The notes under the pieces were generated by a model that saw only the letters and a list, made by a program, of their open reading frames with translations, had not been told where the DNA came from and searched no databases. Both the position numbers and the translations under genes were made by a program. Source: an uncultured Spirochaetaceae bacterium (GTDB taxonomy: Bacteria; Spirochaetota; Spirochaetia; SZUA-6; RPPD01). From it: a stretch of 64,000 nucleotides of DNA. Positions within the stretch are counted from its first letter, which is position 1. The number at the start of each line of letters is the position of its first letter. Below are positions 17,236 through 44,761 of this stretch, piece after piece. The stretch is from the NCBI GenBank assembly GCA_964634205.1, contig CAZWKE010000015.1, positions 66 to 64,065 on the forward strand. The letters run 5' to 3'.

Positions 17236-17338
17236 TTTTTTAATCAACCTTGTTTCACACAATCAAATTTTATTCGAGACGCTGAAACTACACAATAAAA
17301 AACAAAAACGTTATCAGTATGTTTATACCGCGAAACCC

Positions 17339-17866: not shown

Positions 17867-17879
17867 AGATGAGAGAGAA

Positions 17880-23091: not shown

Positions 23092-24114
23092 TTATAATCC
23101 ATTCTTTGCGGTTTTGTTGCAGGAAAATTGCGTAATTTGTTTCAGCATTCTCATCACCAGACCCGGTCTTGCCAGCATTCTGGCGGTTCGCAAATTAAAA
23201 CCGTCATCTTCCGGGGTTTTTTTCGGCGTCTCCATGATTGCGGGCAGGCGCGAAAATACCGGTTTATGCAGAATTCGCTTAAAGCCGCGCCTGCCGATAC
23301 AGCCGCGGCCGATATGCCAGTGACGGTCATGACCGGAGCCCAACGCGGTGAGTGAGTCGTTCAGGTGAAGCAGAAAAAGCTTTTCCGGGCTGATACAGGC
23401 CGTAAACTCCCGAATCGCCTGCCGCAGGCCGCGCCGGGTGTGTATTTTATACCCCGCCTGGAACAGGTGGGCCGTGTCAAGACATATTCCGACGCGCCCG
23501 GCTGCTTCCGCCTTTTCCAATACCGCGGCCAGGTGCCGGAAACAATATCCCAGTTTCCCGCCGCCCCCGCTGGTGTTCTCCAGCAAGAGTGTTACCCCCG
23601 GTCCTGCGGCGGCCACAGAGTCCGCGCCGCCCGGTCCTGCGGCGTCGGATCCCGGGCGTGCTGCTGCCGGTTTCGTACCGGCCGACCTCGCGCCGGTCTG
23701 CCCCCCGGTGGACCCGAAACGCTCCAACACCCATTGAACGCTGCGGGCCATCAGGTCCAGGGCGGCACATTCCGTGTTGGATTTGCGTGAGCCCATGTGC
23801 ACAACGACAAAATCCGCGCCGATCAGTTCCCCGCGCCGCAGCTCCGCCAGCAGGGCTTCCCGGGACCGCTTCAGCAGTTTCCCGTCCTCGGCGCTGAGGT
23901 TCAGCAGGTAGGGCGCATGGATGACACAGGGCCGCAGGCCGTACCGGGACATACCCTCCCGGAACAAGCGGATCTCTTCTGCGGCCAACGGTTTGGTATC
24001 CCAGGAACGGGGGCTGCCGGAAAATATCTGCAGGCAGTCGCATCCCAGCTCGTGCGCCCGTTCCGGCGCCCGGTGCAGCCCCCCCTGAATCGATACATGA
24101 AATCCGAATCTCAT
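23092..24114 (-). CDS. nfo: Endonuclease IV (Nfo family AP endonuclease) with an internal Gly/Ala-rich insertion and a C-terminal extension
   Basis: Metal-site motifs IHAPYLLNL, VVVHMG, LLLEN, ICLDTAHLFQAGY, LLHLNDS and GSGHDRH align to E. coli Nfo. A roughly 38-aa low-complexity insert sits between them. Confidence 0.8.
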   Translation of the reverse strand: MRFGFHVSIQGGLHRAPERAHELGCDCLQIFSGSPRSWDTKPLAAEEIRLFREGMSRYGLRPCVIHAPYLLNLSAEDGKLLKRSREALLAELRRGELIGADFVVVHMGSRKSNTECAALDLMARSVQWVLERFGSTGGQTGARSAGTKPAAARPGSDAAGPGGADSVAAAGPGVTLLLENTSGGGGKLGYCFRHLAAVLEKAEAAGRVGICLDTAHLFQAGYKIHTRRGLRQAIREFTACISPEKLFLLHLNDSLTALGSGHDRHWHIGRGCIGRRGFKRILHKPVFSRLPAIMETPKKTPEDDGFNLRTARMLARPGLVMRMLKQITQFSCNKTAKNGL

Positions 24115-24137
24115 TTTACTCTCATGTTGCGTCTGTT

Positions 24138-25490
24138 TTACACCCCAAAAGCGAAGTGCGCTTCCTTCATTTCTTCCTGCGGGGGATTAAAGTAACCGAG
24201 CTTGACCCAGGGAAACGAGGTATGTATATGACTGATCCACTCCCGCATCCCGATGAAGGAGGGTTCCAATGCATCAAGCTCCAGTTCCTGCATATACCAG
24301 TCCGGGTCCATGTTAAGGTTGCGGGTCTGAAGCATATTGGGTTTTACCGAGCGGATAAGCATATCAAGCGCGGTTATTTCCTGTTTATGATCGGTAAAAC
24401 CGGGGAAAGCCAGGTAATTGACGGATGACCAACGCCGGTATTCGCGGGCCACGGCGAGAGATTCCACCGCGTCGGCGAAGGCATAGCCCCGCGGCCGGTA
24501 GTACGCCGTGTAATATTTTTCCTGCGCCGAGTTCAGGCTGACCCGGATACTGTCAAGGCCGGCTTTAAAGAGTGATTCCAAAGCACGGGGGAGGCTGCCG
24601 TTGGTATTGAGATTGATGATTCCCCTGTCGGTATGCCGGCGGATCTCCCTGATACTTTCGGCTATCAGGTCACTTTGAAGCAGCGGTTCTCCCTCACACC
24701 CCTGGCCGAAACTGATCACCGGCCGCGCCGCCTTTCCCAGGTGCGGGACCGTAAACTCGACAATTTCACGGACGGTCGGGGTAAAGGAGATACGCTCCTG
24801 TGAGGAAACGACCCCCGTTGTTTCGGGCTGCAGTGAGATACATCCGGCACAGCCCGCATTGCAGGCCGGGCTTGTGGGAACCGGGCACTCCCAACGTTCC
24901 AGCACAAAATTACGCGCGGCCGGACAGTCATAACAGTGAACACAGTTTTCCACCAGGTGTGCCGCCAGCCGGTTGCCGGGATAACGGCGCAGCATGCGCT
25001 CCGCCGCCTTGTTGATGCGGTCCTGCCGGAAGTTCCGCAGGTCCTGGCGTGAGTCATGATCGATTCTGGTCCCCGCCGCGTAGAACTCACCCTTGTACCA
25101 GCCCACGGCCGTATAAGCGTAAAGGGGAAGCCTTGCGGCGCCGGGCCGGGCACAGTAGGCCGGTCGGAGAAACTGCAGGTAGGCCGGGGCCATAAAGGCG
25201 GCGGCCGCCGTGACCTTTACCCCGCGGTACTGCTCGATAATGGTGAACCGCCCCAGTGATGTGTTGAAGCCCACGGCCGCCCGCCCGGGCAGCATGAACA
25301 GGTTGCTGCCGTGGGGCAGGGGAATCAGCTCCTCCTGTGCCGGGACGCGCATTTCCCCCAGGGCCATGCCGGCCATGTGCAGGTGGGGAATCTCAAACAT
25401 GTTTCCCTGGTCGTCACTGACAACCAGCAGGGGAGCTTCCATACTGCATTCGATAGTAACGGAAATGAACGGTTTTCTCAATACTCTCAT
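24138..25490 (-). CDS. Radical SAM domain protein (unknown subfamily) with an additional CxxCxxC cluster
   Basis: CNAGCAGC (Cx3Cx2C) radical SAM motif. Upstream CVHCYDC motif. 450 aa. Confidence 0.65.
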   Translation of the reverse strand: MRVLRKPFISVTIECSMEAPLLVVSDDQGNMFEIPHLHMAGMALGEMRVPAQEELIPLPHGSNLFMLPGRAAVGFNTSLGRFTIIEQYRGVKVTAAAAFMAPAYLQFLRPAYCARPGAARLPLYAYTAVGWYKGEFYAAGTRIDHDSRQDLRNFRQDRINKAAERMLRRYPGNRLAAHLVENCVHCYDCPAARNFVLERWECPVPTSPACNAGCAGCISLQPETTGVVSSQERISFTPTVREIVEFTVPHLGKAARPVISFGQGCEGEPLLQSDLIAESIREIRRHTDRGIINLNTNGSLPRALESLFKAGLDSIRVSLNSAQEKYYTAYYRPRGYAFADAVESLAVAREYRRWSSVNYLAFPGFTDHKQEITALDMLIRSVKPNMLQTRNLNMDPDWYMQELELDALEPSFIGMREWISHIHTSFPWVKLGYFNPPQEEMKEAHFAFGV

Positions 25491-25664
25491 AAACTATGCC
25501 AAAGTTTGATTGAGATGTTATTCTTCGAACATTAATACTTTTTTTCTGATGATATTTTCATTGGCTTGTGCTACACTAATGATAACAGTGGTATGCCGTG
25601 CTGCGGTCTGTTTCCCGATGCGCGGCTGACCGCCGGCGGCAGTTACGTGTAAAAAGGGGGAGAT

Positions 25665-27197
25665 ATGAAAAAAAGGTTTTGCTTCGCGGGTGCTTTATTA
25701 TTGACCGGACTGTTTCTGTTGTCCGCTTGCGGGTCCGGGGTTATAAAATCCGACCTGGGGTCGCTCTCCTGTCTGCCCGACAACTATACATCGTTTATCT
25801 ATATCAAGAACTTTCCGCATATAAAGGATGTTTTTGAGAAGTCGGAGTTCGCCGCTAAACTGAAAGATAACTATGTCTATCGGGATTTAAAGTACAAATA
25901 CTCACAGAGTATGGACCTGTTTTTTGTCAAGCTGGACTTTGATCCCGAAGCGCTGTTGGAACGGGTGAACAAAGATCTGCTGATCGGCTTTACCCCCGGC
26001 AGCTTTTTTGTGGCTGCCTCCCTGGATTATCAGTCACAGCTTGTGTATGCGCTTTTCAACCTGCTGCCCGATACCTACATCCAAAAAAGCAGGATTATGG
26101 GGCAGGAGATCAGCAGCTTTGCCCGGAACGGAAGGCAGATCTATTTCAGCTTCCAGAACAATTATCTGGTGGTAGCCGGAGACCGCAATACCATGTCCGC
26201 CCTGCTGGATTCCGACAGAAACAAAGACGTAGAGGGCAATGCATTGATAAACTCCTGTACGGATGAAGATGTTTATTTTCGCACCTCAATGCCCAAGGAT
26301 TACAACCAGTTCGATCTGCTGCCGCAGCTGGGGAAAATCTCCGTCAGGCTTAACCTGGCCACCTTTCATGCCCGGCTTGAGGCGGAACCGAAAAGCCACA
26401 GCTCATTTACCAAACCGGAAGAGGATTACCAGTATTTCCGCTTTTTAAAGTACCTTCCCCCGGATTTTACCCTGTGTTATTTTAACCGGGAATACGAAAC
26501 GGCCGCGGTCCTGCGCCAAATCTTTTCCAACTATGCCGAAGACCCCACGTATGCCTACCGGGCCGAGGAAAACATAAAAGAACTCTCCGTATTCGACAAC
26601 TTCAGCGATGGAGCCGTGTTTGCCTTTAAGACCCTGGGCTACAACCGCGGAGGTTCGGATGTGGAGCCCGGATTTGCTTTTGCCCTGCAGTTAAAAAAGA
26701 AGGTCCCGTCCTCCGGCCTGCCGTCGATATACGCCTCGGTTTTCCGTGTATTCAATTTCCTGTTCGGGTTCAGCGGTTGGGACAAGCAGGCGGGAAAAAA
26801 CTACACGGTTTATACCTGCAGAGACAATGATTTCCATATCATTGTTGCGGATCGCTTTTTCATTCTCTGCAGCAGCAAGGACATAACCGGGGACATAACC
26901 CAAAGGATCGAATCCGCCCAGGCATCGTTGTACGATACCCTGTTCGGCCGGTTCAAATCAGTAAAACAGGACAACCTGGTCTATTACATGGGAATTAATA
27001 TGAACAGCCTGGTGTCCGAGGTGGAGCCGTTTTTCTCCGATTATATCCGCGGGCGCCTGGGGATGAACAGGGGAGAGTATAATCACAGTTTCGGGGAGTT
27101 CATCAGTTTTTTGAAAGGTCGCCGACCGCTTTACATAACACTATCCAAAACCACAGACAGGGGAATGTATACGGGTGAAGTTACGTTTGTCAAATAA
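25665..27197 (+). CDS. Hypothetical lipoprotein, first gene of the alpha-2-macroglobulin cluster (possibly YfaA/DUF2138-like)
   Basis: Signal plus lipobox MKKRFCFAGALLLTGLFLLSACGSG. 510 aa. Overlaps the next gene. Confidence 0.45.
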   Translation: MKKRFCFAGALLLTGLFLLSACGSGVIKSDLGSLSCLPDNYTSFIYIKNFPHIKDVFEKSEFAAKLKDNYVYRDLKYKYSQSMDLFFVKLDFDPEALLERVNKDLLIGFTPGSFFVAASLDYQSQLVYALFNLLPDTYIQKSRIMGQEISSFARNGRQIYFSFQNNYLVVAGDRNTMSALLDSDRNKDVEGNALINSCTDEDVYFRTSMPKDYNQFDLLPQLGKISVRLNLATFHARLEAEPKSHSSFTKPEEDYQYFRFLKYLPPDFTLCYFNREYETAAVLRQIFSNYAEDPTYAYRAEENIKELSVFDNFSDGAVFAFKTLGYNRGGSDVEPGFAFALQLKKKVPSSGLPSIYASVFRVFNFLFGFSGWDKQAGKNYTVYTCRDNDFHIIVADRFFILCSSKDITGDITQRIESAQASLYDTLFGRFKSVKQDNLVYYMGINMNSLVSEVEPFFSDYIRGRLGMNRGEYNHSFGEFISFLKGRRPLYITLSKTTDRGMYTGEVTFVK

Positions 27198-28224
27198 ACG
27201 GGGAGTGTTCATATCGCTTCTCATCCTGTTTTGTCTATGTATTGTCGCTGCCGCCGGGCTGTTTTTCTCCGCCCTTGCGGACAATGCATTGATTATAAAT
27301 ACAAACGAGCGGTCGCTTCCCGCGGACCGCGGTTCGACCTGTTTTTATGCCATCAGCTATGCCAATCCCCTGCGTGCATTGTTTTTCCCCTTTAACGGAA
27401 ATTATTCACTTGAGTTCGAACAGGGGGGCGGATTGGTAACGACCGTTAAAAAGCAAGGCGGCTTTTTTATCCAAAGTACGGGCCAAAGCGGTACCGTGGT
27501 ATTCAGCGTAAATGTCGCCGGATTCAGACAGGGTTTCAACCTGCGCATCGATACGGATACCGCGGATACGGACGGCGACGGTTTTCCGGACGCGGTGGAG
27601 CTGGATTCGCCGGCGGACCGGGAAAGTTTTCGCCGCTGGTTTGTCAGTATTGCCGAAAGTCAGTTCTACGCGCCCTCGTATTCCTGGTATGACATACACC
27701 GGGACTGCGCCGGGTTGGTGGTATTTTCCTTTAAAGAGGCGCTGAAAAAGCACGGGACGGACTGGTTGAAAAATTTTCCCTACCTGGTAAAACAGGATAT
27801 CCCGGATGTGCGGAAATATCACTACCCGCGGGTGCCGCTTTTGGGAGACCGGATCTTTCGTACCGCCGGGGGAGGGTTCGCGGCGGGGGATGTAAAAAAC
27901 GGCGGTTTTGCCCCGGTTGCCGACGTAAATACCCTGATAAACCACAACCTGACGTTTATCGGCAAAGACCCCGGAGACTTTGCGGCGGGTGATATTTTGT
28001 TTTTCCTGCACACCGACAACCCGGACATGCCCTTTCATTCCATGATTTATACGGGAAGGGACGGGTGGCTGGTGTACCATACCGGCCCGTTGGACGACAA
28101 GCCGGAGGGAGAGGTGAGAAAAGTACGCCTGACGGATTTGTTGCTTCATCCGGACAGGAGTTGGGCGCCCGTGGCGGACAATCCCTGTTTTTTGGGTGCG
28201 TTTCGCTGGAATATTTTAATGTAG
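27175..28224 (+). CDS. A2M-associated secreted protein, putatively DUF1175 (YfaT/MagE-like), with an Asp-rich TSP3-like calcium-binding repeat
   Basis: GTG start overlapping the upstream gene. N-terminal TM/signal. DTDTADTDGDGFPDAVELD repeat. Position immediately 5' of the A2M gene. Confidence 0.45.
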   Translation: MKLRLSNKRGVFISLLILFCLCIVAAAGLFFSALADNALIINTNERSLPADRGSTCFYAISYANPLRALFFPFNGNYSLEFEQGGGLVTTVKKQGGFFIQSTGQSGTVVFSVNVAGFRQGFNLRIDTDTADTDGDGFPDAVELDSPADRESFRRWFVSIAESQFYAPSYSWYDIHRDCAGLVVFSFKEALKKHGTDWLKNFPYLVKQDIPDVRKYHYPRVPLLGDRIFRTAGGGFAAGDVKNGGFAPVADVNTLINHNLTFIGKDPGDFAAGDILFFLHTDNPDMPFHSMIYTGRDGWLVYHTGPLDDKPEGEVRKVRLTDLLLHPDRSWAPVADNPCFLGAFRWNILM

Positions 28225-28246
28225 CGATCATTAAGGAGGAGAAAGT

Positions 28247-31200
28247 ATGTTTACACAGAAGAAAGCCGGATTTTTGCTTTGGGTACTGTGTGTGGGCTGT
28301 ATCTTGTTTTTTAGCGGAGGCCCGCTGTTCGGCGAGCGTCCCTTTTACCTTTCCACGGACAGAAGTTTTACTCCGGGTGAAGGCATAAAAATCAGGGTTG
28401 AGTCCGCCCGCATTTCCACCCTGAAGATCAGGGTCTATAAAATAAAGGACCCCACCCAGTACTTTCTGACCCAGGATAATATCCACCGCCCCAAGGTCCG
28501 GGGGAGGTCAATGCGCTACTTTGCCCCGGAGGTTTTCAGCGGATTTGAGGACCACCTGCGCGTCTCCCTGCGGCATTGGGCCAGGCGGACCATCCCGGCG
28601 CTTAATCGCGGCAAGATCATGGAAACATACCCTGAGTTTGCGCGTAAATCGCGCGAGGGGCATTATAATCCGGAAAAGACTGTTGATTATATCAATGACG
28701 AAAACTTCAGCCTGGCACGGGAAGAGGAGTGTGTGCTGGAGGAGCGCGGCCATGACCTGAATGTCAATTATGTGTTTCTGAACAGTCTCTTACCGGGTAC
28801 CTATCTGATCGAGGGGATAAACGGGAGAAATGTGGCGTACACGGTCCTTAATATCGCGGAGTTCGGTTTTATCGTGAAAAAGGCCGGGGAGGACTGCCTT
28901 GTCTACACCGTAAACAACAAAACCGCGGAACCGTTGGCGGGGGTGGAGCTGACCGTATACAACCGTTTTAACCGCAAGGTGGGACAGCTGCGTTCGGACA
29001 ATAACGGCCTGGCCCGGGCGCGTTTGGCCGAAAATGATATATTTATCGTCGGCCGCAGCCCGCGGGGTGAGTACGCGTTTTATGATCCCAATTATTTCCC
29101 CTCCACGCTGCGCGACAATAATGTGTATATGTACACCGAACGGCCGGTGTATCGCGGCGGTGATACGGTATATTTCAAGGGAATTTACAGAAATTATAAA
29201 CAGGGCGTGTACAGCGCAACCGGCGCCGGAGAGATCGGGATGACCGTTATCGACGGCCGGGGGAACCGGGTACAGACGTTCACCGTGAACTCGGACAACC
29301 TGGGTATTTTTTCCGGAGAGTTCGCCCTGCCCAAGGACGCGGTTTCCGGGCGTTATACCCTTCTGGCGCGCATCGACGGAAAAGAGTACGAGGCTGAGTT
29401 CAAGGTGGAGTATTATAAAAAGCCGGAGTTCAAGGTAGAGGTCACCACACCGGAATCCGCCTATATCGGCGGGGCCGAACTGACCGCGAACGTCAGCGGG
29501 CTGTATTATTTCGGGGAGCCCCTGGCCGGGGCAACCGTGCATTACTCGGTCTACCGAACACGCTTTGCGGATACCCAATGGATGAACGACCAGGCCGGCG
29601 GGTTCTATGTCAGTGAGCAGGAGTATGTATACTCCCGACCGGAGTTGATCGAAAGCCGGGATGCCAGGCTTGACGGGAAAGGAAAGCTTTCGCTTCAGAT
29701 TAAAACACGCCATGAAAATGATCCCTTTACCTACCGGATTGAGGCTGCGGTTGTTTCCGACACCGGAACCAGGGTAACCGGCAGCACCCTGGTCAAGGTA
29801 TACCCTGCCGCCGTGCGCCTGGGCATCTCAACCGATAAGTTTGTGTACCTGGTGCGTGAAAAAGTGAACATAGAGGTAAGGCTGGCGGACATAAAAGGCA
29901 TGCCGCTGGCGGGCAAGGTAAAGGTGACGGCCACCTCAGGAAACCAGGTGATAGGGGACGGCTCGGTCAACACCTCCGCCAAGGGCGGGGGAGTGTTCCG
30001 GTTTTCCGCACGCAGCACGGGATTTGTGAAGGTCCTGGCCCAGGCACAGGACAAGGACGGCAATACGGTAAAAAGTGAAAAATACCTCTGGATTGGAGAA
30101 GAAGGCGCGAGTTACCAGTACAGCGGCGGGCTTATCAAGCTGGTCCTTGATAAATCCTCATATAAAACGGGCGAGCGGGCAAAGCTGCTTGTTATTTCCC
30201 CGGTGCCGGAGGTCAAATTCCTGCTGACGGTGGAGGGTGATGACATCTACAGCCATGAGGTGAAAAAACTCAGCGGCAACAGCGCTTTAATCGAGATTCC
30301 GTTATATGAAAAGTATATTCCGAATGTGTTTGTCGACGTCAGTTTTATTTTTAACAATCGCTTTTACAACAACAGCATAAAGATCAGTATTCCGCCTGAA
30401 CAACGGTTTTTAAATATCGATATTAAGCCGGAGAAAAAGGTGTATGAACCCGGGCAGACCGGCAGTATGCTGATAACGGTTACGGACAACAAGAACCGCC
30501 CGGTGGCGGGGGCGGACCTTTCCCTGTCCGTGGTGGATGAAGCCATCTACGGCATCTCCAACGAAATCGCGGTTGATATCCGGAAGTTTTTCTATCCCTT
30601 CCGGCGCAACAATGTCATGACCTGGTCTTCCATCGGGTTCAGGTTTTACGGATATGCCATGGACGTGTACAGCGAGCTTGCCCAGCGGTTTTACCGGGAC
30701 CCGACGGGGCTGGCCGCCTTCAAAGGAGGAGAGGCGGAACGCAAGGATTTTAAGGATACAATACTGTGGATCCCCTCCCTGAAAACAGACAGCCGGGGGC
30801 AGGCACGTGCCGAGGTCAAGTTTCCGGACAACATCACCCAATGGCGGGCCACGGTAGTGGGAATTACCGGGGACACCCTCGTGGGCAGGGCAACCGGGAG
30901 TGTCATCACCAAACTTGATTTTTTCACCGATATTTCCCTGCCTTCGTACCTGGATGAGAAGGACCGGTTCTCCATTTATAATAGCGTATACAACTATACG
31001 GATAAAAGCCTCAAGACAACCCTGACCATGAAAGCGGACAAGGCGGTCATAGCCGAACCGCTGCAGACCGTTACCGTGGAACCGCACAGCAGCACGCTGG
31101 TGCAATGGGACCTCACCGCCGCGGGACTGGGTGAGGCAAGCTTTACGCTGCAGGCCAATGCCGGCCGTTACAAGGACACCATCACCAAAAAAGTGACCAT

Positions 31201-32809
31201 CATCCCGCATTCCATTATGAAGGCTATCAATGTCAATGCCAAACTGGACAATCGGCACAACTCCATGAAATTTAGGATTCCGGAGAAGATGAAAAAGGGA
31301 AGTCAGACCCTGGAGGTAAACGTTTCCTATGGGTACGCTTCGGTTATCCTGGAATCGCTGGATTACCTTATAATGTATCCCTACGGCTGTGTTGAGCAGA
31401 CCACCAGCAGTTTTCTACCCAACCTGGTGGCGGTGAATGCCCTGAACAAAACCGGGCTGCATAATCCCCGTTACGAAAACCAGCTTGCCAAGAACATAGA
31501 ACACGGCCTGGCCAAGCTGTACGGGTTCCAGCTGCAGGACGGTTCCTGGGGTTGGTTCGGCGGAGGCGACAAAAACCTGTTTATGACCGCGTATGTGCTG
31601 TATGCCCTGACCCTTACCGGAAACCTGGGGTATGAGGTGGATACCGGCGTGTTGTCCCGTGGGCTTACCGCCCTGGGGAACAGGCTGGGAAATGCGCGCA
31701 ATGATACGGAAAAGGTGTACGCGCTTTATGTCCTGAGCCTGAACGCAAAAAAATATGAAAGCGTCTACTCCAGCCTGAAGAGCAGGGAAAAGGATTTGAA
31801 TCCCTACAGCCTGGCGCTGCTTGCCCTGACCGCGCTGAATTACAACAAAACCGCGGACGCACTGGACCTTGTGGGCCGGCTGAAGTACCAGGTAAAAAAG
31901 GACTCTGCCGGGAAGCTGGTGTACTGGGGAGACAGCCGCACAACCTCCTGGTATAAGGATGATGTGGAAACAACCGCCTGGGTACTGCGCGCCCTGATCA
32001 AAGTGGACCCCCGTGCGGACCTGATTCCCAGGGCCGTGGACTGGCTGTTTTTTCACAAGGACGGCAGCCGGTGGAAGTCTACGCGTGATACGGCGGCGGC
32101 AATTTTTGCCCTGTCCGATCTGCTTGCGGCCCGGGGTGAAAAAGAAAAGCAGGCCGGGTTTGACCTGAAGGTGAATAACACAAAACTGGGCAGGATCGAG
32201 TATACAAAAAACAGCTTTACCACCATGAAGCGTTTTTCGGCCGCGGAACTTGAGGGTGTCTTGCGCAAAGAGAACACGCTTTCCATTGAGGGGATCAACT
32301 CCGACCAGCCCCTGCTTGTCTCGCTTTCTTTTTCCTATTACACGGACGACAACCTGATTGCCGCGGATTCATCGGGCATCCGGATTACCCGGACATATTA
32401 TGAACTGAAGGAGAACCGCTCGTATTCGGGCAAAATAGAGTATGCCAAGGGCGAGGTGCTTTCAAGCTTTGAGACCGGTAAGAACGTCCTGGTGGAAATC
32501 GAGTTCGGATTAAACAACCGGGAGGATTATGTACTGATAGAGGATTATTTCCCCTCGGGCTGTACTCCGGTTAAGGACTTTAAACTGTCGTCAATCAGGG
32601 GATACTCCAATTCGGGACGGCCGGACTATGTTGATTTCCGTGATGACAAGGTAGCGTTCTTTTATTCGCGGGCCGGTTCTCATAAAATTTATTATGTGCT
32701 GCGTCCGGTGTTTGAGGGATCGTATGAGGTGATGCCCGCAACGGCTTCATTGATGTACTTTCCGTCTGTCAGGGGAAACTCCACCGACAGCCATGTTTCA
32801 ATTAAATAG
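28247..32809 (+). CDS. Alpha-2-macroglobulin family protein with intact thioester motif (bacterial A2M, 1520 aa)
   Basis: AAGGAGGA RBS. Signal peptide. Length and domain order typical of bacterial A2M. Thioester pentapeptide GCVEQ at about nt 31385-31399, with the characteristic downstream YALY/WGW region. Confidence 0.85.
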   Translation: MFTQKKAGFLLWVLCVGCILFFSGGPLFGERPFYLSTDRSFTPGEGIKIRVESARISTLKIRVYKIKDPTQYFLTQDNIHRPKVRGRSMRYFAPEVFSGFEDHLRVSLRHWARRTIPALNRGKIMETYPEFARKSREGHYNPEKTVDYINDENFSLAREEECVLEERGHDLNVNYVFLNSLLPGTYLIEGINGRNVAYTVLNIAEFGFIVKKAGEDCLVYTVNNKTAEPLAGVELTVYNRFNRKVGQLRSDNNGLARARLAENDIFIVGRSPRGEYAFYDPNYFPSTLRDNNVYMYTERPVYRGGDTVYFKGIYRNYKQGVYSATGAGEIGMTVIDGRGNRVQTFTVNSDNLGIFSGEFALPKDAVSGRYTLLARIDGKEYEAEFKVEYYKKPEFKVEVTTPESAYIGGAELTANVSGLYYFGEPLAGATVHYSVYRTRFADTQWMNDQAGGFYVSEQEYVYSRPELIESRDARLDGKGKLSLQIKTRHENDPFTYRIEAAVVSDTGTRVTGSTLVKVYPAAVRLGISTDKFVYLVREKVNIEVRLADIKGMPLAGKVKVTATSGNQVIGDGSVNTSAKGGGVFRFSARSTGFVKVLAQAQDKDGNTVKSEKYLWIGEEGASYQYSGGLIKLVLDKSSYKTGERAKLLVISPVPEVKFLLTVEGDDIYSHEVKKLSGNSALIEIPLYEKYIPNVFVDVSFIFNNRFYNNSIKISIPPEQRFLNIDIKPEKKVYEPGQTGSMLITVTDNKNRPVAGADLSLSVVDEAIYGISNEIAVDIRKFFYPFRRNNVMTWSSIGFRFYGYAMDVYSELAQRFYRDPTGLAAFKGGEAERKDFKDTILWIPSLKTDSRGQARAEVKFPDNITQWRATVVGITGDTLVGRATGSVITKLDFFTDISLPSYLDEKDRFSIYNSVYNYTDKSLKTTLTMKADKAVIAEPLQTVTVEPHSSTLVQWDLTAAGLGEASFTLQANAGRYKDTITKKVTIIPHSIMKAINVNAKLDNRHNSMKFRIPEKMKKGSQTLEVNVSYGYASVILESLDYLIMYPYGCVEQTTSSFLPNLVAVNALNKTGLHNPRYENQLAKNIEHGLAKLYGFQLQDGSWGWFGGGDKNLFMTAYVLYALTLTGNLGYEVDTGVLSRGLTALGNRLGNARNDTEKVYALYVLSLNAKKYESVYSSLKSREKDLNPYSLALLALTALNYNKTADALDLVGRLKYQVKKDSAGKLVYWGDSRTTSWYKDDVETTAWVLRALIKVDPRADLIPRAVDWLFFHKDGSRWKSTRDTAAAIFALSDLLAARGEKEKQAGFDLKVNNTKLGRIEYTKNSFTTMKRFSAAELEGVLRKENTLSIEGINSDQPLLVSLSFSYYTDDNLIAADSSGIRITRTYYELKENRSYSGKIEYAKGEVLSSFETGKNVLVEIEFGLNNREDYVLIEDYFPSGCTPVKDFKLSSIRGYSNSGRPDYVDFRDDKVAFFYSRAGSHKIYYVLRPVFEGSYEVMPATASLMYFPSVRGNSTDSHVSIK

Positions 32810-32821
32810 AAGGGGGCGGAT

Positions 32822-33496
32822 ATGAAGAAGATATGTTTGGGGTTGTTTTTACTGCTGTTTGCCGGGACCGTGACGTTGTGTGCCGATTATCTCCGTATTC
32901 TTTCACCGCGCGGCGGTTGGACCGATCAGCGCGTAATTACCATTTCCGGAGAGACGGACGCCCATGTGGACGCGGTCCGGGTGGTGTACAACAGTATTCC
33001 CCTGCGGCTGCCCGTACGAAGCGGGAGGTTCAGCCGCAATTTCGTCACCGCCCCGGGGCTGAACTCCATTTACGCGGAGGCCGAGTTCAAGGGGAAGGTA
33101 CTCTCGGATAATGTGTCCTTTTACGCGGAGGTACCCTCGAAGGCCATGAAGATCGTGATTATGTGGGACACGGACAAGACCGATGTGGATCTGCATGTGA
33201 AGGAGCCCACCGGTGAAGAGTGCTATTACGCCAATCCCCATACCAAGATCGGCGGGGCCCTGGATGTCGATATTACCACGGGGTACGGCCCCGAGGTGTA
33301 TACCCTGGCTTCGGCCACCAAGGGTACGTACAAGATCAGCGTTTACTACTACTCGGACCGCGGCAATCCCCAGACCCAGGTCAAGGTCTATGTGGTGCTG
33401 TATGAAGGCACTCCGAACGAGCGTATTCAGGAGTTCGAGACCATGCTGACCAAGACCGGGGTGGAAGTATATATCGATGCGGTCACGCTTGAATAA
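32822..33496 (+). CDS. Secreted protein, putatively DUF2135 (YfaP/MagA-like) A2M accessory protein
   Basis: Signal peptide. Conserved-looking block IVIMWDTDKTDVDLHVKEPTGEECYYANP...GGALDVDITTGYGPEVY. Confidence 0.45.
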   Translation: MKKICLGLFLLLFAGTVTLCADYLRILSPRGGWTDQRVITISGETDAHVDAVRVVYNSIPLRLPVRSGRFSRNFVTAPGLNSIYAEAEFKGKVLSDNVSFYAEVPSKAMKIVIMWDTDKTDVDLHVKEPTGEECYYANPHTKIGGALDVDITTGYGPEVYTLASATKGTYKISVYYYSDRGNPQTQVKVYVVLYEGTPNERIQEFETMLTKTGVEVYIDAVTLE

Positions 33497-34238
33497 GAAA
33501 GCACGCACGGCCTTACCCCTGCTCTTGCTGGGCCTGGTGCTTGCGGTGTCGCTTACGGGAGGTTCGTTTTCACGGGGGCGGTTTTATCTTCATGGAGACG
33601 GGTTTAGCGCGGATGAGGCCGGCCTGGTTATGGACACCCTGGAAAATGCGGAGCGGTTGTTAAGCGGTATCTATAATTATATTCCTGCTGAAAATCTGGA
33701 CATTATTGTGTTGTCCGGGGTATGGGAAATGAAAACTTCGTTTGGTGTAGGCCCCTGGGTGGGGGCGTATTATACCGGCTTTAAAACCTACCTGCAGCCC
33801 ATAGCGACCCTGAAAAAGCGCGAAGTACTTGCCAGGGTCCTGTTTATTGAGTACGCCCATTACTATCTGGACTCTTACACAAATCGGACCTGTCCGGCCT
33901 GGTTTAATGAGCTGTGCTCGTATTACCTTTTTCGCCTGTATACCGGTGCCCCGCCGGTTCCGGCCGCGCCGGCGGCCGGAGTTTCCTTCAGGCGCTATGC
34001 TGATTTTATCGATCTCTCCGCGAACATGAGGGATTATGACCGGCTGGAGTCATTTTACTATTACGCGGTGCGCTTTGTGCTGTTCTTACAGGAACGGCAC
34101 AGGCTGAACGCCTGCCTGGACCTGGTAAAAGCCATGCACCGCGGCATCTCGTTCAAGGATGCGGTAACACAGGCCGCGGGAAAATCCCCGGCCCGGTTGT
34201 TTGAAGAGGAGTTTTTGGCATGGCCCGCGGCAAAATAA
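33477..34238 (+). CDS. Hypothetical secreted protein in the A2M cluster
   Basis: 253 aa. Signal peptide MRSRLNKKARTALPLLLLGLVLAVS. Overlaps both neighbours. Confidence 0.45.
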   Translation: MRSRLNKKARTALPLLLLGLVLAVSLTGGSFSRGRFYLHGDGFSADEAGLVMDTLENAERLLSGIYNYIPAENLDIIVLSGVWEMKTSFGVGPWVGAYYTGFKTYLQPIATLKKREVLARVLFIEYAHYYLDSYTNRTCPAWFNELCSYYLFRLYTGAPPVPAAPAAGVSFRRYADFIDLSANMRDYDRLESFYYYAVRFVLFLQERHRLNACLDLVKAMHRGISFKDAVTQAAGKSPARLFEEEFLAWPAAK

Positions 34239-35185
34239 GCCCCGGCCTGCGTGCCGTAGTGCTGCTGGGGATGGCCTGCCTGGGATTTTTCGGACCGGAT
34301 GCCGTGGGGGCAAAGCGGGCAGCTGCCGAAAACAATACCGCCAGCAGTATGAGCGCGGTCTTACGGGACCTGGAGCGGCGCTATGGTGAGTTCGGCTGTA
34401 TTATCACCAATCCGCAGACCGGTGAGGTCCTGCTGATCTATAATGAGCCGCTGATTTCGCGCCGGCCCCTGTGCCCCGGATCACTGCTGAAGCCGTTCGG
34501 CCTGTTGGCCCTGGCCCGGTCCGCCTCCGTAGACCCGAAAACGGAAATTGTCTGTAAGGGCAAAACCCGGGGCGAGATCTCCTGCTGGCTGCAGGAAGGC
34601 CACGGCAGGATCAATCTGACCCAGGCCCTGGCCTATTCATGTAATTATTATTTTTATTATTTTTTTAAAGACCGCCTGCAAAAAGACGACTATGCATGGG
34701 TTCTTAAAAGTTTCGGCCTGCCCCCACTGCCCGGAATAACGGGTATGAGTAAGCAGGATTTTTATAAGGCGGCGGTCGGCCTTGACAGCGAATTGATGAT
34801 CACCCCCTTGCAGATGATCTATGCCTATAATGCGTTGTTCAACGGCGGAAAACTTTTCAATCCGGGGGGTGAGCGGACCCGCAGGATTTACGTTCCCGAT
34901 GACGTGCGGGACATCCTTGCCGGGGGAATGCGCGAATGCGCCCTCTACGGCACGGGAAAAAAAATCTATAAAAACAACCCGGGGATGGATATAATCATAA
35001 AAACCGGTACCGGGGCCAGCGTGAACATGGGAACCGAGGTATGGTATAAAAAGACCCGCTGGGTGGTGGTCCTGTCTCCGGGGCTTGATCCGGTATTCAG
35101 TATGCTGGTGGTCATGGAAAAGAAGGAATCGGAGGATATCCATGAGCTGACGATCGAACTGCTGCGTCAGCTTACCACCCGCTAA
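34220..35185 (+). CDS. Penicillin-binding-protein transpeptidase / class-D beta-lactamase-fold protein (standalone, secreted)
   Basis: SxxK (PGSLLKPF), SxN (YSCN) and KTG (IIKTGTG) motifs in the correct order and spacing. Signal peptide. Confidence 0.6.
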   Translation: MARGKISPGLRAVVLLGMACLGFFGPDAVGAKRAAAENNTASSMSAVLRDLERRYGEFGCIITNPQTGEVLLIYNEPLISRRPLCPGSLLKPFGLLALARSASVDPKTEIVCKGKTRGEISCWLQEGHGRINLTQALAYSCNYYFYYFFKDRLQKDDYAWVLKSFGLPPLPGITGMSKQDFYKAAVGLDSELMITPLQMIYAYNALFNGGKLFNPGGERTRRIYVPDDVRDILAGGMRECALYGTGKKIYKNNPGMDIIIKTGTGASVNMGTEVWYKKTRWVVVLSPGLDPVFSMLVVMEKKESEDIHELTIELLRQLTTR

Positions 35186-35223
35186 AACACGGGGATTATC
35201 CGCCGGCGGAGGGCGCGAGACGG

Positions 35224-36432
35224 TTGAGGAGTAAAAGGGTGCGCAGGATTTTTTTTCTGCTTGTTATGATAGGGACTGTTTGTGGAGTATCCGCCCAGGA
35301 CGGGTCCGACCTGGCCCGGGTGAATCTCAGCGGCTATGCCTATGTCCCTGAGTTTACGCTGACCTTTTCCCCGGGCTCACGCATAAACATCGACGGACGG
35401 CGGGTCTCCATGAGAAGCTGCCGCATTCTGCCCGCGCAAAAATCGCTGGTTACCGAAAAAAGCGGGCGCCTGATCTTTGAGCTGGTAACTATTCGACCCG
35501 CCAACGGTGATGTCACCGGGTTTACCACCCCGGTGGGTACGCAGCAGTTCAGGGGGCGTATTGAAATAAGGGCCGCCGATGAGGGGATTCTCATCATCAA
35601 CACCCTGCCCGTGCGGGACTACCTGGCTTCCGTACTGGGCGGTGAGATGGGAGAGAACTTCCGGGACGAGGCGCTGAAGGCCCAGGCCGTGGCCATCCGC
35701 AGTTACTACTACGCCAAGCGGCGGCTGAACCGGCGGCAGGCTTTTGATGTCAGTAATACCGACGGAGTGGACATGGTCTACCGCGGCAGCGGATTTGCCA
35801 CTGATAAAATGTATGAGATCATGAAACAGACCGCGGGCCTGTTTTTGGTCGGTCCGGACGAAAGGCCCGCCCTGGCCCTGTTCCATTCCACTTCGGGCGG
35901 CCTGATTCTCAAGGACAAGGTGTTTACCTCTGATTTTTACAACCCGCCGCAGGAGCCCGTGCTCCGCAAAGACACGGACGAAAAAGGCCGTCCCCTGGCC
36001 TCCTCTTCCCCGTACTTCACCTTTGACATTACCTTAAGCGGGGAGCAGTTGATCCGCGCGCTGTACCCGGTGGTCCGGCTCTCCCGGCTTACGGACATCA
36101 GGCTGCGCTATTTCCCGGGCACCGCATGTGTGGATTTTATCGGCCTGATCGACCAGGACGGCAATACCCACTGGATAAAGGGCTTCAACTTTGTTTCGCT
36201 GGTACAGCAGCATATTACCCTGGGCCTGGGGTCCATCGATTTCAGCGTACAGAAACAGGGGGGCCGTTTTCGCTTTACCGGCAGGGGATTCGGCCACCAA
36301 TGCGGTATGAGCCAGTACAGCGCGGAAAAACTGGCACAGGGTGGGTACGGCTTCAAACAGATTTTACGGCGCTATTACCCGCAGTATAAGCTGGTAGCTA
36401 TTCCGGCGGCTTCCGCACTGCTGCGCAAATAA
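35224..36432 (+). CDS. SpoIID/LytB-domain protein (peptidoglycan lytic enzyme / amidase activator family)
   Basis: EALKAQAVAIRSYYY, FHSTSGG and GRGFGHQCGMSQYSAEKLAQGG are hallmark SpoIID motifs. Signal peptide. Confidence 0.75.
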   Translation: MRSKRVRRIFFLLVMIGTVCGVSAQDGSDLARVNLSGYAYVPEFTLTFSPGSRINIDGRRVSMRSCRILPAQKSLVTEKSGRLIFELVTIRPANGDVTGFTTPVGTQQFRGRIEIRAADEGILIINTLPVRDYLASVLGGEMGENFRDEALKAQAVAIRSYYYAKRRLNRRQAFDVSNTDGVDMVYRGSGFATDKMYEIMKQTAGLFLVGPDERPALALFHSTSGGLILKDKVFTSDFYNPPQEPVLRKDTDEKGRPLASSSPYFTFDITLSGEQLIRALYPVVRLSRLTDIRLRYFPGTACVDFIGLIDQDGNTHWIKGFNFVSLVQQHITLGLGSIDFSVQKQGGRFRFTGRGFGHQCGMSQYSAEKLAQGGYGFKQILRRYYPQYKLVAIPAASALLRK

Positions 36433-36507
36433 GAAACCAAATGTAAAGAATAGTAGACATTCGGGAAATTCCTTAATATATTATAATTAATATATTAAGG
36501 AGAGCGT

Positions 36508-37059
36508 ATGAAACAATATTTATTGGCGTTTTTTTTTGCAAGTCTTCTTATCGTGGGAGCGTGCAGCTCCGCCAAGGAAAATACTTCGGTGACGGCACAG
36601 GCGACCGAGAGTAAGGGGGATCCCGATATGAGTAAAGCCGCGTTAAAGCAAAGGCTTACGCCTTTGCAGTACCATGTCACACAAGAAAACGGCACGGAAC
36701 GGCCCTTTATCAACAGGTACTGGAATAATGATGAACCCGGTATTTATGTGGATATTGTGTCCGGCGAGCCGCTGTTCAGTTCCCTGGACAAGTTCCATTC
36801 CGGTACGGGGTGGCCCAGCTTTACCAAGCCCCTGGTACCGGGCAATATCGTAGAGAAAACCGATTCCAGCAGTTTTATGGTCCGTACCGAGGTACGCAGT
36901 AAGCACGCCGATTCACATTTGGGACACGTATTCGATGACGGGCCGGCGCCCACGGGCCTGCGCTACTGTATAAACTCCGCGGCCCTGCGCTTTATTCCGG
37001 CGGCCGACCTGGAGAAAGAGGGCTACGGACAGTTTGCCAAGCTGTTTGCGAAGAAGTAA
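36508..37059 (+). CDS. msrB: Peptide-methionine (R)-S-oxide reductase MsrB, lipoprotein form
   Basis: Lipobox [24 protein letters not shown] and RYCINSAAL are the SelR catalytic motifs. Confidence 0.85.
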
Positions 37060-37065
37060 GGTCTG

Positions 37066-38454
37066 TTAAAACTCGGCGCTGGTGTAGGCCCGGGGAAAGG
37101 GAATGACATCGCGGATGTTCTGCATGCCCGTGATGAACTGTACCAGGCGTTCCAGGCCCAGGCCGAACCCCGAGTGGGGAACCGAGCCGTATTTACGCAG
37201 CTCCAGGTACCACCAGTAGTCCTTTTCGTTCAGTCCGAGCTCCCGGAGCCGCGCCAGTAGTCTGTTATAGTCCGCCTCACGCTCACTGCCCCCGATGATT
37301 TCTCCGATCTTGGGAACCAACACGTCCATGGCACGAACGGTTTTGTTGTCCTGGTTAATTTTCATGTAAAAGGCTTTTATCTCTTTGGGGTAATCGGTGA
37401 TGATTACGGGATTGTTATAAACCTGCTCGGTCAGGTACTTTTCGTGCTCGGACTGCAGGTCTATGCCCCACTTTACGGGAAACTCGAAATCCACGCCGGC
37501 CTTTTCCAGCTCGGTTACGGCTTGTGTATAGGTAATACGGGTGAAGGTGGAGTTCACGATGTTTTCCAGGGTCTCCAGGCGTCCTTTCTCAATCCATTTG
37601 TTGAAGAACTCCATGTCGGGCGCGCACTGTTTCAGCACGGAGGAAATGATGTATTTCAAAAACTCCTCGGCCGTGTCCATGTTCAGGTTGATGTCGCAGA
37701 AGGCCATCTCCGGCTCCACCATCCAAAACTCGGCCAGGTGCCGGCTTGTCAGTGAGTGCTCGGCGCGAAAGGTGGGGCCGAAGGTGTAGATGTTCCCCAG
37801 GGCACAGGCGTAGATCTCGCCCTCAAGCTGTCCGCTGACCGTGAGGTAGGTCTTTTTGCCGAAAAAATCCTTGCTGAAATCCACGTTCCCGGCCTCAAGC
37901 GGCGGTTTTTCCATGGGCAGGGTGGTAACCTGGAACATCCGGCCCGCGCCCTCACAGTCGCTGGCAGTGATGATGGGGGTGTGGATATATAAAAAACCGC
38001 GCTCCTGAAAAAAACGGTGAATGGCGAAGCTTAAGGCGTTCCTGACCCTGGTTACGGCGCCGAAGGTGTTGGTGCGCGGCCGCAGGTGGGCGATCTCGCG
38101 CAGGTACTCAAAGGAATGGTGCTTCTTCTGCAGGGGGTACTCATCGGCCGGGGACCTGCCCAGCATGGTGATACTTTCCGCGGCCAGCTCCATGTCCTGT
38201 TTGCCTCCGGGGGAAGCCTTGAGTGTGCCCCGGGCCTCGATACCGGCGCCCGTGGTCAGGTCGGGTATCAGCCGGGCCAGGGCGGGATTTGATTTATCGA
38301 TAAACACCTGCAGGTTGGTAATGATCGAACCGTCGTTAAGCTCAATAAAGCAGAAGCTCTTGGAATCCCGTGAAGTGCGGATCCAGCCGTACACCCGCAG
38401 GTCGGTATTAAGCGGCTTTTGGTCCAGGATGTCTTTGATGCGCATGGTCTGCAT
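37066..38454 (-). CDS. asnS: Asparagine--tRNA ligase
   Basis: 462 aa. N-terminal OB anticodon-binding domain. Class II motifs FRAEHSLTSRHLAEFWMVEPE and GFGLGLERL. Confidence 0.9.
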   Translation of the reverse strand: MQTMRIKDILDQKPLNTDLRVYGWIRTSRDSKSFCFIELNDGSIITNLQVFIDKSNPALARLIPDLTTGAGIEARGTLKASPGGKQDMELAAESITMLGRSPADEYPLQKKHHSFEYLREIAHLRPRTNTFGAVTRVRNALSFAIHRFFQERGFLYIHTPIITASDCEGAGRMFQVTTLPMEKPPLEAGNVDFSKDFFGKKTYLTVSGQLEGEIYACALGNIYTFGPTFRAEHSLTSRHLAEFWMVEPEMAFCDINLNMDTAEEFLKYIISSVLKQCAPDMEFFNKWIEKGRLETLENIVNSTFTRITYTQAVTELEKAGVDFEFPVKWGIDLQSEHEKYLTEQVYNNPVIITDYPKEIKAFYMKINQDNKTVRAMDVLVPKIGEIIGGSEREADYNRLLARLRELGLNEKDYWWYLELRKYGSVPHSGFGLGLERLVQFITGMQNIRDVIPFPRAYTSAEF

Positions 38455-38466: not shown

Positions 38467-39702
38467 TTAAAACAGGTACAGCGGGTGCGAGTCAGGGTTC
38501 TTGCCGAAAAAAGTGATGTCGTCAACCTTGCCTACTTTTTCCCCGCGCAGCAGGGCGAACAGGGTTCGTTCCACCCCGATGCCGCCGCCCATGGTTTCCG
38601 GGAACAGCGGGCTGCCGTCCTCGTCCTTTAAAGAAGTAAAATATAGAAAAGGCCCATACCCGCCCAGGCTTTCGATGTTTTCGATATTCCCGTCTTTTAT
38701 CACCGGTCTCACTCCGAGTACGCGATTGTCCAGAATCCTCTCTACAATGGGCTCAAACAGCCACTCACGGATGGCGCCCGAGAGGATCTCCCTGGCCGGA
38801 GTCTGTTTTCCCGTTTTGGCGTTAATGCTTTTGGCAATAATATCGAAGTTAAAGATGGAAGACGAGTCTACCTTGGCGAGGTCTATTGTACTCCCGTCCT
38901 CGAACAAATACGGAAATACCAGATCATAGTTTTCCCGGAACAGGCCCGTGATCCAGAAGAACTGGGAGGGGGTCTCCCGGCCGCAGTGCTCCTCATATGC
39001 TTTAGCCCCGTACTTTTGCACGCTCTTGTCCTTGGCAAAGCGGGGAAAGGGTATCTGCGGTACCTCCACGGCGATCCCCAGGTTTTTCAGATTTTCCGCG
39101 CACTTTGTAACCAGTGCCTCCATGGCGGCGGCCAGCATGCGCTCAAAAAAGTTAATCACCCGGTCAAAATCCTCGCGCAGAATTCCGGTGACCATCTTCG
39201 GTTTGTGGTAGTAATCTTCCAACGTTACGTACCGGTTGCGGCGCAGCTCCACGTCTATCTGAGAAAAGTCCGCCAAATACTTGCCCCTCTGGATGTTGTT
39301 GGGGCTTTCCAGCTCCAGCCTGATGTTGGGGGAGTCCACGTAGATGCCTTTGATCTTTTTATTGGCGCAGGCCATGAACTTGCTGTAGATCATGCTGTGT
39401 GTGGTAACATAGGTGTGTCCCTTGTAGGCAATTGTCGGCGTGTGTTCGATGTCATGTGCCAGGGGATCGGTAAGGATACTGAGCATGACCTTTTCGATGT
39501 TATGCAGCCCCTCGGCCGCCAAAAAATCCGTGCATGCCTGTACCAGCGCTGTGCGTACGGCCATAACATGGTACATCTCGTCCGAGATCCATTTTTTGCA
39601 GTAGTTCCGGCGGATAAACTCTTCCAGGCTGCTGCCTTCCTGTTTTAGCGCCGCCTGAAAGTTGCCCAGGCTCTGTCCGATGGTTTTCATACTGTCTTCC
39701 AT
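38467..39702 (-). CDS. Class II aminoacyl-tRNA-synthetase-like catalytic-domain protein lacking an anticodon-binding domain (AsnRS paralogue; AsnA-type asparagine synthetase or amino-acid ligase candidate)
   Basis: 411 aa. Motif 2-like IRLELESPNNIQRGKYLADFSQIDVEL. Motif 3 GGGIGVERTLFALL. No OB fold. Lies 13 nt from asnS on the same strand. Confidence 0.6.
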   Translation of the reverse strand: MEDSMKTIGQSLGNFQAALKQEGSSLEEFIRRNYCKKWISDEMYHVMAVRTALVQACTDFLAAEGLHNIEKVMLSILTDPLAHDIEHTPTIAYKGHTYVTTHSMIYSKFMACANKKIKGIYVDSPNIRLELESPNNIQRGKYLADFSQIDVELRRNRYVTLEDYYHKPKMVTGILREDFDRVINFFERMLAAAMEALVTKCAENLKNLGIAVEVPQIPFPRFAKDKSVQKYGAKAYEEHCGRETPSQFFWITGLFRENYDLVFPYLFEDGSTIDLAKVDSSSIFNFDIIAKSINAKTGKQTPAREILSGAIREWLFEPIVERILDNRVLGVRPVIKDGNIENIESLGGYGPFLYFTSLKDEDGSPLFPETMGGGIGVERTLFALLRGEKVGKVDDITFFGKNPDSHPLYLF

Positions 39703-44536: not shown

Positions 44537-44537
44537 G

Positions 44538-44705
44538 ATTTCCTGGGAATGACACTCAACTCACGTTTTTGGCCGGCGTGAATTACCTTCATGATAATAC
44601 GCTGCCCCGGTTTCCAGCGCGCCAGAATACGGTGGATATCATCTACCGTGCCGACCTCATATTCATCCAATCCATAAATAAGGTCGCCGCCGGTTGACGT
44701 GAGGG
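44538..44705 (-). pseudogene. Remnant encoding the C-terminal part of a PDZ domain (HtrA/periplasmic-protease-like); no start codon or upstream domain
   Basis: Minus-strand translation TSTGGDLIYGLDEYEVGTVDDIHRILARWKPGQRIIMKVIHAGQKRELSVIPRKS* is PDZ-like. It is preceded directly by an in-frame TAA. Confidence 0.3.
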
Positions 44706-44761
44706 AATAAAGAATTATTTACACTTGCAATTCTCCGCCTTTTTTGTCTAGAGTAGTAGCT

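Follow-up and report, generated by a model that had tools for sequence, protein, structure and literature searches.

A seven-gene alpha-2-macroglobulin cluster in an uncultured Spirochaetia bacterium: a probable Mag/Yfa-type system with a retained thioester and an unfused MagE/YfaQ

Background

Bacterial alpha-2-macroglobulins (A2Ms) are divided into two types: those of type I carry a thioester, are lipoproteins and adjoin pbpC, and those of type II are devoid of the thioester and are encoded in the mag operon, which has six genes (PMC5764988; PMC3735191). The original two-class description is that of Budd et al. 2004, cited here through later papers. To which of the two types belongs a locus that has the thioester of the first and partner genes of the second? 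The question is raised by seven genes, O1 to O7, found at positions 25665-36432 of a 64,000-nucleotide stretch of DNA from an uncultured Spirochaetia bacterium (the window, to which all coordinates refer unless another locus is named). An initial annotation had placed seven co-directional genes in this interval, exactly where we find the open reading frames (ORFs), and had read them as a mixture of the YfhM/PBP1C and YfaS/Mag partner sets. We consider it probable that the locus is instead a complete A2M system of the Mag/Yfa type, corresponding to the type II operon, which kept its thioester and in which MagE/YfaQ is present as three proteins.

The Mag families can be matched to those of Escherichia coli as follows, the COG numbers being those of PMC3735191 and the matching to the DUF families our own: MagA and MagF (COG4676) to YfaP (DUF2135), MagB (COG4685) to YfaA (DUF2138), MagC (COG3234) to YfaT (DUF1175), MagD (COG2373) to the A2M YfaS, and MagE (COG5445) to YfaQ (DUF2300). 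According to the comparisons presented below, O1 to O4 would be the counterparts of MagB, MagC, MagD and MagA/MagF, respectively, and O5, O6 and O7 would be parts of MagE/YfaQ. This locus and its many relatives bear on the way in which type II macroglobulins and the Mag proteins function together.

Results and discussion

The macroglobulin O3

All the domains named in the initial annotation (DUF1175, A2M, DUF2135, Transpeptidase and SpoIID) were backed by Pfam and NCBIfam scans, and the thioester of the A2M, the three motifs of the penicillin-binding protein (PBP) fold in O6 and the export signals of all seven products were likewise found in the sequence. O3 (28247-32809, + strand, as the whole cluster) encodes a protein of 1520 aa with the Pfam domains MG2, A2M_BRD, A2M, TED and bMG10. 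In phmmer comparisons O3 scores 262 bits against E. coli YfaS and 78 bits against YfhM; both the yfa and the yfhM reference loci were taken from strain K-12, and the YfaS reference is the 1372-aa ORF of the K-12 pseudogene. A rough distance tree places YfaS with the A2Ms linked to MagC (0.84-0.85) and not with YfhM (0.95), and YfaS is less distant from O3 than from YfhM. Judging from these comparisons, O3 appears to belong to the YfaS/MagD clade.

At the thioester site of the alignment O3 has GCVEQ (G1047-C-V-E-Q1051; 31385-31399, + strand) and YfhM has GCLEQ, whereas YfaS has GGVIN and MagD is reported to be without cysteines (PMC3735191). The sequence GC[VT]EQ is present in each of the 119 full-length A2M homologues recovered in the protein search. 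The retained thioester seems to be the sole type I-like trait of the locus. The N-terminus of O3, MFTQKKAGFLLWVLCVGCILFF, contains cysteines and shows no canonical lipobox, and the lipoboxes of spirochaetes are loose. In a sequence search of the PDB, O3 matched human alpha-2-macroglobulin (7voo) with 117 bits and CD109 with 99 bits, both above the 78 bits of YfhM.

O6 and O7 as counterparts of the two halves of YfaQ/MagE

O6 (34220-35185, + strand, 321 aa) is predicted to be a stand-alone, class-B-like PBP transpeptidase domain. It matches Pfam Transpeptidase at 8.6e-26 and carries the motifs S88-x-x-K91, S140-C-N142 and K261-T-G263, which are retained in 27 of its 27 relatives. The PBP2 model TIGR03423 gives 72 bits (3.6e-20), as opposed to 18 bits for the class A PBP model, and in the PDB search O6 was matched to the PBP2 structure 8yjx (7e-8). 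O7 (35224-36432, + strand, 402 aa) resembles lytic transglycosylases of the SpoIID/LytB type, with matches to Pfam SpoIID (2.4e-17) and TIGR02669 (2.3e-35, 122.8 bits for a cut-off of 83.3). The best of its matches to the SpoIID structures 4rwr, 5i1t and 5txu reached 4.6e-14, 5i1t and 5txu being aligned over the entire domain (residues 128-390 of O7 in the case of 5i1t), and the catalytic Glu of SpoIID, E141 in O7, is kept in all 20 relatives (20/20). O6 and O7 retain all their catalytic motifs and may be active enzymes.

BLASTP and phmmer comparisons of O1, O5, O6 and O7 with E. coli YfaA and YfaQ returned nothing significant pairwise, and the relationships of these four proteins to YfaA and YfaQ were resolved by profile-profile comparison only. 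O5, O6 and O7 had no Pfam DUF2300 match at E <= 10, and a tblastn search of plasmids with YfaQ returned enterobacterial copies only, which added no diversity. The YfaQ family alignment was compared by hhalign with family alignments of O6 and O7 composed of length-filtered single-domain members. Residues 1-363 of YfaQ aligned with the O6 family at probabilities of 89-93% and E-values of 2e-6 to 2e-7 (2.4e-7 at a probability of 93%), and residues 240-509 with the O7 family at a probability of 96.8% and an E-value of 3e-10, as compared with E-values of 0.03-0.7 and probabilities of at most 1.6% in eleven unrelated control pairs. E. coli YfaQ, annotated as 'tandem DUF2300', itself has a Pfam SpoIID match at residues 312-374 (27 bits for a threshold of 23), and SpoIID (PF08486) appears in the precomputed Pfam matches of most of its 120 best relatives. 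Moreover, an AlphaFold2 model of YfaQ, with a predicted local distance difference test score (pLDDT) of 81, matches PBP transpeptidase and class A and class D beta-lactamase folds with E-values of about 4e-6. A recent preprint also describes YfaQ, by HHpred and structure prediction, as a transpeptidase-like N-terminal domain followed by a SpoIID-like C-terminal domain, and reports that deletion of yfaQ results in wider cells and that the mutant clusters with peptidoglycan-remodelling mutants (bioRxiv 10.1101/2025.02.11.637708).

By these comparisons, O6 appears to be the counterpart of the N-terminal half of YfaQ/MagE and O7 that of its C-terminal half, and because of this homology the partner set of O3 is best described as the ordinary Mag set in an unfused form. 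The active-site motifs are not the same in the two families: O6 has SxxK, SxN and KTG, whereas in the YfaQ family SxxK is kept, the site of SxN is invariably S-C-G, and KTG is not conserved. A Cys-x-Gly...Cys-Trp...GHG insertion considered as a special link between O6 and YfaQ was rejected, as the same insertion is present in PBP2 (8yjx).

Fusions and census of MagC-linked loci

A census of loci containing MagC was obtained by scanning one genome per GTDB species and comprised 80 loci from many phyla, annotated with custom hidden Markov models; those for O5, O6 and O7 were built from length-filtered single-domain members. These are the loci of the 80 MagC relatives that resemble O2 most closely, and Gammaproteobacteria are for this reason under-represented in the sample. 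In five loci of Acidobacteriota a single protein of 800-1000 aa combines the three domains in the order O6-O7-O5, which is also the domain order of YfaQ (L036 16644-19388; L037 16683-19730; L041 9712-12375; L046 16261-18714; L083 8659-11115). MagC lies next to each of these fusions, as does a thioester A2M in all but L083, where none was detected alongside. A further acidobacterial locus, L049, has O6-O7-O5 spread over two overlapping ORFs, and looks like a frameshifted fusion. Five other loci have an O7-O5 fusion, with a separate O6 alongside in four of them and the fifth ending at a contig edge, and in a genome labelled Clostridia O6 and O7 are fused while O5 comes next as a gene of its own. 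In hhalign the YfaQ family and the triple fusion aligned collinearly in about 500 columns, residues 13-548 of YfaQ facing 64-822 of 883 (probability 89.7%, E-value 1.9e-6).

CxEQ is present in all 48 full-length A2Ms adjoining MagC in the census (48/48), which come from at least eight phyla, and for this reason loss of the thioester looks like a derived, proteobacterial trait. Gene counts were made in the 54 census loci whose sequence extends for 9 kb or more downstream of MagC, among which the A2M was present in 46, O6 in 34, O5 in 31, O7 in 30, O4 in 19 and O1 in 17. In two loci from Thermodesulfobacteriota/delta, L015 (10880-15559) and L032 (11276-15928), the MagC-linked A2M consists of two ORFs of about 1065 and 484 aa without CxEQ; both loci have O6 and O5 and are devoid of O7 and O4. 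MagC homologues without a nearby A2M by phmmer were observed in L013, L021, L026, L038, L047, L073 and L084, and in L013 and L073 ORFs of 1102 and 868 aa, respectively, are located directly 3' of MagC instead of the A2M.

The partners O1, O2 and O4

O2 (27175-28224, + strand, 349 aa) is the MagC/YfaT homologue. It matches the Pfam family DUF1175, now named MagC, at 2.8e-61, the sequence of the MagC structure 7bk8 at 1.5e-19 in the PDB search and YfaT at 5e-27 (84 bits) by phmmer. The N-terminus of the protein bears a hydrophobic anchor and is extended by 125 aa, and the residues C178, H288 and H302 are present; in the family alignment the Cys of DCAG, H288 and the His of YHTG are invariant. 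MagC is said, in a FEBS Letters paper on structure 7bk8, to be an NlpC/P60-like peptidoglycan binder. Just after the extension, residues 131-144 of O2 (27565-27606) form an acidic motif of the thrombospondin type 3 kind, DTDGDGFPDAVELD, which is kept in non-proteobacterial MagC homologues and missing from E. coli YfaT. O4 (32822-33496, + strand, 224 aa) is the homologue of YfaP/MagA/MagF, with a Pfam DUF2135 match of 27.1 bits (cut-off 22) and a phmmer match to E. coli YfaP at 1e-29 (92 bits).

O1 (25665-27197, + strand, 510 aa) encodes a lipoprotein with the lipobox LSAC and its cysteine at position 22, and its gene is located directly upstream of the MagC gene, in the same place as yfaA. Among 18 proteins of the O1 family, seven, all encoded 5' of MagC, match DUF3352. 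The O1 family aligned with the YfaA (DUF2138) family in hhalign over about 450 collinear columns, with probabilities of 88-91% and E-values of 1e-6 to 3.5e-6 against 0.17-0.7 in the controls; when the single YfaA sequence was used in place of the YfaA family alignment, the comparison was insignificant (E 0.036). With moderate confidence, O1 can be taken as the MagB/YfaA counterpart within a DUF2138/DUF3352 superfamily, on remote similarity and position.

O5 and a gluzincin-like motif

The fifth protein, O5 (33477-34238, + strand, 253 aa), had been left as unknown in the initial annotation. It has indeed no Pfam match, and comparison of its family, through weak matches, suggests a secreted protein with a gluzincin-like domain of the Peptidase_MA_2/collagenase kind. 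Relatives of O5 repeatedly gave sub-threshold matches to Peptidase_MA_2, the best being 8.5e-6 with 26.1 bits for a gathering score of 32.4, and the family profile aligned weakly with the peptidase domain of ColG (E 0.064), over both zinc-ligand motifs. The family has the consensus HExxH...P.W..EGLA, in which E125 and E145 do not vary, and distant members have HExxH...WxxEG. In the protein of the window the sequence is I124-E-Y-A-H128...WFNELCS, so that HExxH is degenerate and E145 is kept. The first His is replaced in O5 and its close spirochaete relatives (IEYAH or TEYAH), and zinc binding is therefore doubtful here. A single-sequence AlphaFold2 model of O5 had a pLDDT of 40, too low for a fold search.

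In E. coli YfaQ (yfaQ, L004 6149-7798, - strand) the C-terminus has a family-invariant HEYLH at residues 520-524, followed by D535, E536 and E540, an arrangement that resembles a gluzincin motif in minimal form. The literature consulted, in which YfaQ is a two-part protein, was found to contain no mention of HEYLH. Comparison of this C-terminal region with the O5 motif gave an E-value of 7.5e-4 and a probability of 25%.

Conservation of the seven genes as a unit

O3 is 98% identical to a protein of a Spirochaetia metagenome-assembled genome. The identical order of the seven genes, including the short overlaps, is found in relatives whose A2Ms are 71% and 49% identical to O3. In the more distant of these, both flanks are unrelated to the flanks in the window, which indicates that the seven genes travel together. 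Six or seven of these gene families are also present in six further Spirochaetota genomes, some of the loci being cut by contig ends, and in two of the six the order of O6 and O7 is reversed. A KSB1 genome (L003) has retained the MagC-A2M pair, in whose vicinity are a SpoIID-like gene and one similar to O1; these two are separated, at 5692-6616, by a gene with a TIR domain and by a toxin-antitoxin pair of the NTase/HepT kind. Across five phyla or more, the genes of the cluster are kept together while their flanks differ, and their arrangement is not due to chance.

Comparison with known systems

The magABCDEF operon of Pseudomonas aeruginosa and the yfa operon of E. coli are composed of the same families as the cluster in nearly the same order, and the K-12 order yfaA-yfaT-yfaS-yfaQ-yfaP differs from it only in the position of yfaP. 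The products are all exported in these systems, which probably share an overall role at the interface between periplasm and peptidoglycan. The differences, besides the thioester and the active-site motifs of O6, concern the MagE/YfaQ content, which takes three genes in the cluster and one in the Mag/Yfa operons; DUF2135, represented by one gene in the cluster and two in Pseudomonas; O1, a lipoprotein remotely similar to DUF2138, as opposed to a MagB anchored by a transmembrane helix; and HExxH, degenerate in O5 and present as the invariant HEYLH in YfaQ. Neither a retained thioester in such a system nor an unfused MagE was found described in the literature searched, the original 2004 survey lying outside that search, and both features are apparently unreported.

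With the type I system of YfhM (ECAM, Sa-A2M) and PBP1C, the cluster shares the CxEQ thioester, the bait-region domain and a partner with a penicillin-binding fold. However, besides its low score against YfhM, O3 is about 130 residues shorter and lacks a canonical lipobox, and the cluster has neither a bifunctional class A PBP nor a glycosyltransferase and encodes five additional partners of the Mag type. As to the SpoIID/SpoIIP/SpoIIM engulfment machinery of Firmicutes, O7 can be aligned with the whole catalytic domain of SpoIID, keeps its catalytic Glu and, like SpoIID, is paired with peptide-cleaving partners. Here, however, the context is not one of sporulation, and the host is a diderm spirochaete; the partners of O7 are MagC-like, PBP-like and gluzincin-like, whereas that of SpoIID is the amidase SpoIIP; and the N-terminal part of O7, some 120 aa of unassigned fold, is additional to SpoIID.

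Proposed function and alternative readings

By analogy with the characterised systems, the cluster is likely to encode a periplasmic complex that combines a trap with peptidoglycan maintenance, and the general idea of a protease-trap and cell-wall module, already present in the initial annotation, holds. A protease is trapped by MagD, which is found in complexes with MagA, MagB and MagF and is stabilised by MagB (PMC5764988), and the mag operon protects P. aeruginosa against VgrG3 and Tae1, which are type VI secretion system (T6SS) effectors that target peptidoglycan, by a mechanism called unknown (PMC12663445). On the basis of this published trapping by MagD, the structure of MagC and the protection against T6SS effectors, we propose that the cluster proteins would assemble in the periplasm on O1, tethered to the inner membrane. 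An incoming hydrolase would cleave the bait region of O3 and would then be captured covalently by O3 via the thioester, while O2, O6 and O7 may bind to the peptidoglycan where it is damaged, trim it and crosslink it anew. As the intact sites are located on separate polypeptides, thioester capture, acylation of the transpeptidase and glycan cleavage are separately testable in this system.

Some observations weigh against the reading of the locus as a complete Mag/Yfa-type system. Type II is defined by an A2M without CxEQ (PMC5764988; PMC3735191), and O3 has this motif. O1 has no Pfam match, and its putative link to DUF2138 comes from profile-profile comparison and gene position only. A role is hard to assign to O5, given its apparently degenerate HExxH, and the possible link between O5 and the C-terminus of YfaQ is weak by itself and only suggestive. 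Finally, co-transcription of O1 to O7 is inferred solely from spacing and conservation. Nevertheless, we regard this reading as the probable one.

A broader reading, which we advance tentatively and with some doubt, is that the cluster resembles the ancestral state of the Mag system, in which a thioester A2M would act together with three partners competent in catalysis, namely a PBP2-like transpeptidase, a SpoIID-like cleaver of glycan strands and a gluzincin active in many lineages. MagE/YfaQ of Gammaproteobacteria and Betaproteobacteria would then be a compacted fusion of the three parts, in which an invariant HExxH persists, and the loss of the thioester a late, lineage-specific event. If this were true, the system would provide diderm bacteria with a widespread module of immunity to effectors, in which injected peptidoglycan hydrolases or proteases are covalently captured and the wall is repaired on the spot. 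The published split of A2M types appears to mirror which Proteobacteria were studied, and one may see in MagE/YfaQ several enzymes joined in one chain.

Among the alternatives, the one that survives best, although we think it unlikely, is that the cluster is mainly a machine for peptidoglycan remodelling or morphogenesis, in which the A2M is a scaffold or regulator of O2, O6 and O7 rather than a trap. The altered cell width of the E. coli yfaQ deletion mutant and its clustering with peptidoglycan-remodelling mutants would fit such a role, as would the fact that three of the seven proteins are homologues of wall enzymes with intact catalytic motifs and that some MagC homologues have no detectable A2M. 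However, each of the 48 full-length A2Ms linked to MagC keeps CxEQ together with the bait-region and thioester domains, which argues for selection on the trapping chemistry. Moreover, MagD traps a protease in vitro (PMC5764988) and protects against injected peptidoglycan hydrolases (PMC12663445).

The hybrid proposed in the initial annotation, in which a thioester A2M of the YfhM type is combined with Mag accessory genes and PBP1C is replaced by a transpeptidase and a SpoIID protein, seems to us scarcely tenable. In its favour are the thioester motif, found as in type I A2Ms, and the transpeptidase-fold protein. Against the supposed mixture of partner sets, O3 is far nearer to YfaS than to YfhM (262 and 78 bits), and the set is that of Mag; DUF1175 and DUF2135 had been correctly listed among the partners, but the canonical fifth one, YfaQ/MagE (DUF2300), had been overlooked. 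As to the swap of PBP1C, there is no PBP1C-like gene, Pfam found no glycosyltransferase (Transgly) domain in any ORF of the cluster, O6 is class-B-like and homologous to the N-terminal half of YfaQ, and O7 is homologous to its C-terminal half. Comparison of neighbourhoods across phyla, which had been suggested as a check, did reveal a conserved gene set, fused in places, but spoke against the hybrid, given that CxEQ is found in 48 of 48 MagC-linked full-length A2Ms. Because the thioester is universal in MagC-linked A2Ms beyond the studied Proteobacteria, it looks ancestral and not imported. Lastly, a fortuitous neighbourhood of unrelated envelope genes, for which one could cite the uninformative promoter and terminator scans, can be dismissed as extremely improbable in view of the gene set kept together, amid flanks that differ, in five phyla or more, its fusion in several combinations, and spacings of -23 to +38 nt with overlaps conserved in relatives.

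Layout of the cluster and neighbouring genes

The seven ORFs at 25665-36432 are co-directional and tightly packed, with successive spacings from O1 to O7 of -23, +22, +12, -20, -19 and +38 nt. The N-termini of all seven proteins, as read from the sequence, are basic at first and then hydrophobic, and export of all seven products is predicted. The cluster is preceded by a divergent intergenic region (25491-25664, + strand), likely its promoter region, and by a radical SAM gene on the opposite strand (24138-25490, - strand). A consensus scan found one sigma-70-like site in this region, at 25510-25539. Overall, the promoter scan gave 15 sites against 8.5 +/- 3.2 in shuffled sequences, with no clear excess, and the terminator scan gave counts at the shuffle level. 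Rfam had no match in 24000-38000, the PADLOC defence models matched none of the seven proteins, and NCBIfam provided no equivalog-level names for the cluster proteins.

Located 75 nt 3' of O7 is an MsrB gene (36508-37059, + strand; SelR, 1.9e-48) whose product has a lipoprotein-type signal, …LLIVGACSS, and a promoter-like site lies between the two genes, at 36454-36482. A SelR gene is also present near the cluster in a relative (L001, 20153-20686). This MsrB may be a periplasmic methionine-sulfoxide repair enzyme tied to the system, or it may be a mere neighbour. Convergent with the MsrB gene are two tandem genes similar to class II aminoacyl-tRNA synthetases (37066-38454 and 38467-39702, both on the - strand), the second of which is shorter and has a weak tRNA-synt_2 match (1.5e-6). 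The G+C content is 0.45-0.49 at positions 12001-18000 and 44001-50000 of the window, as compared with 0.51-0.57 around the cluster.

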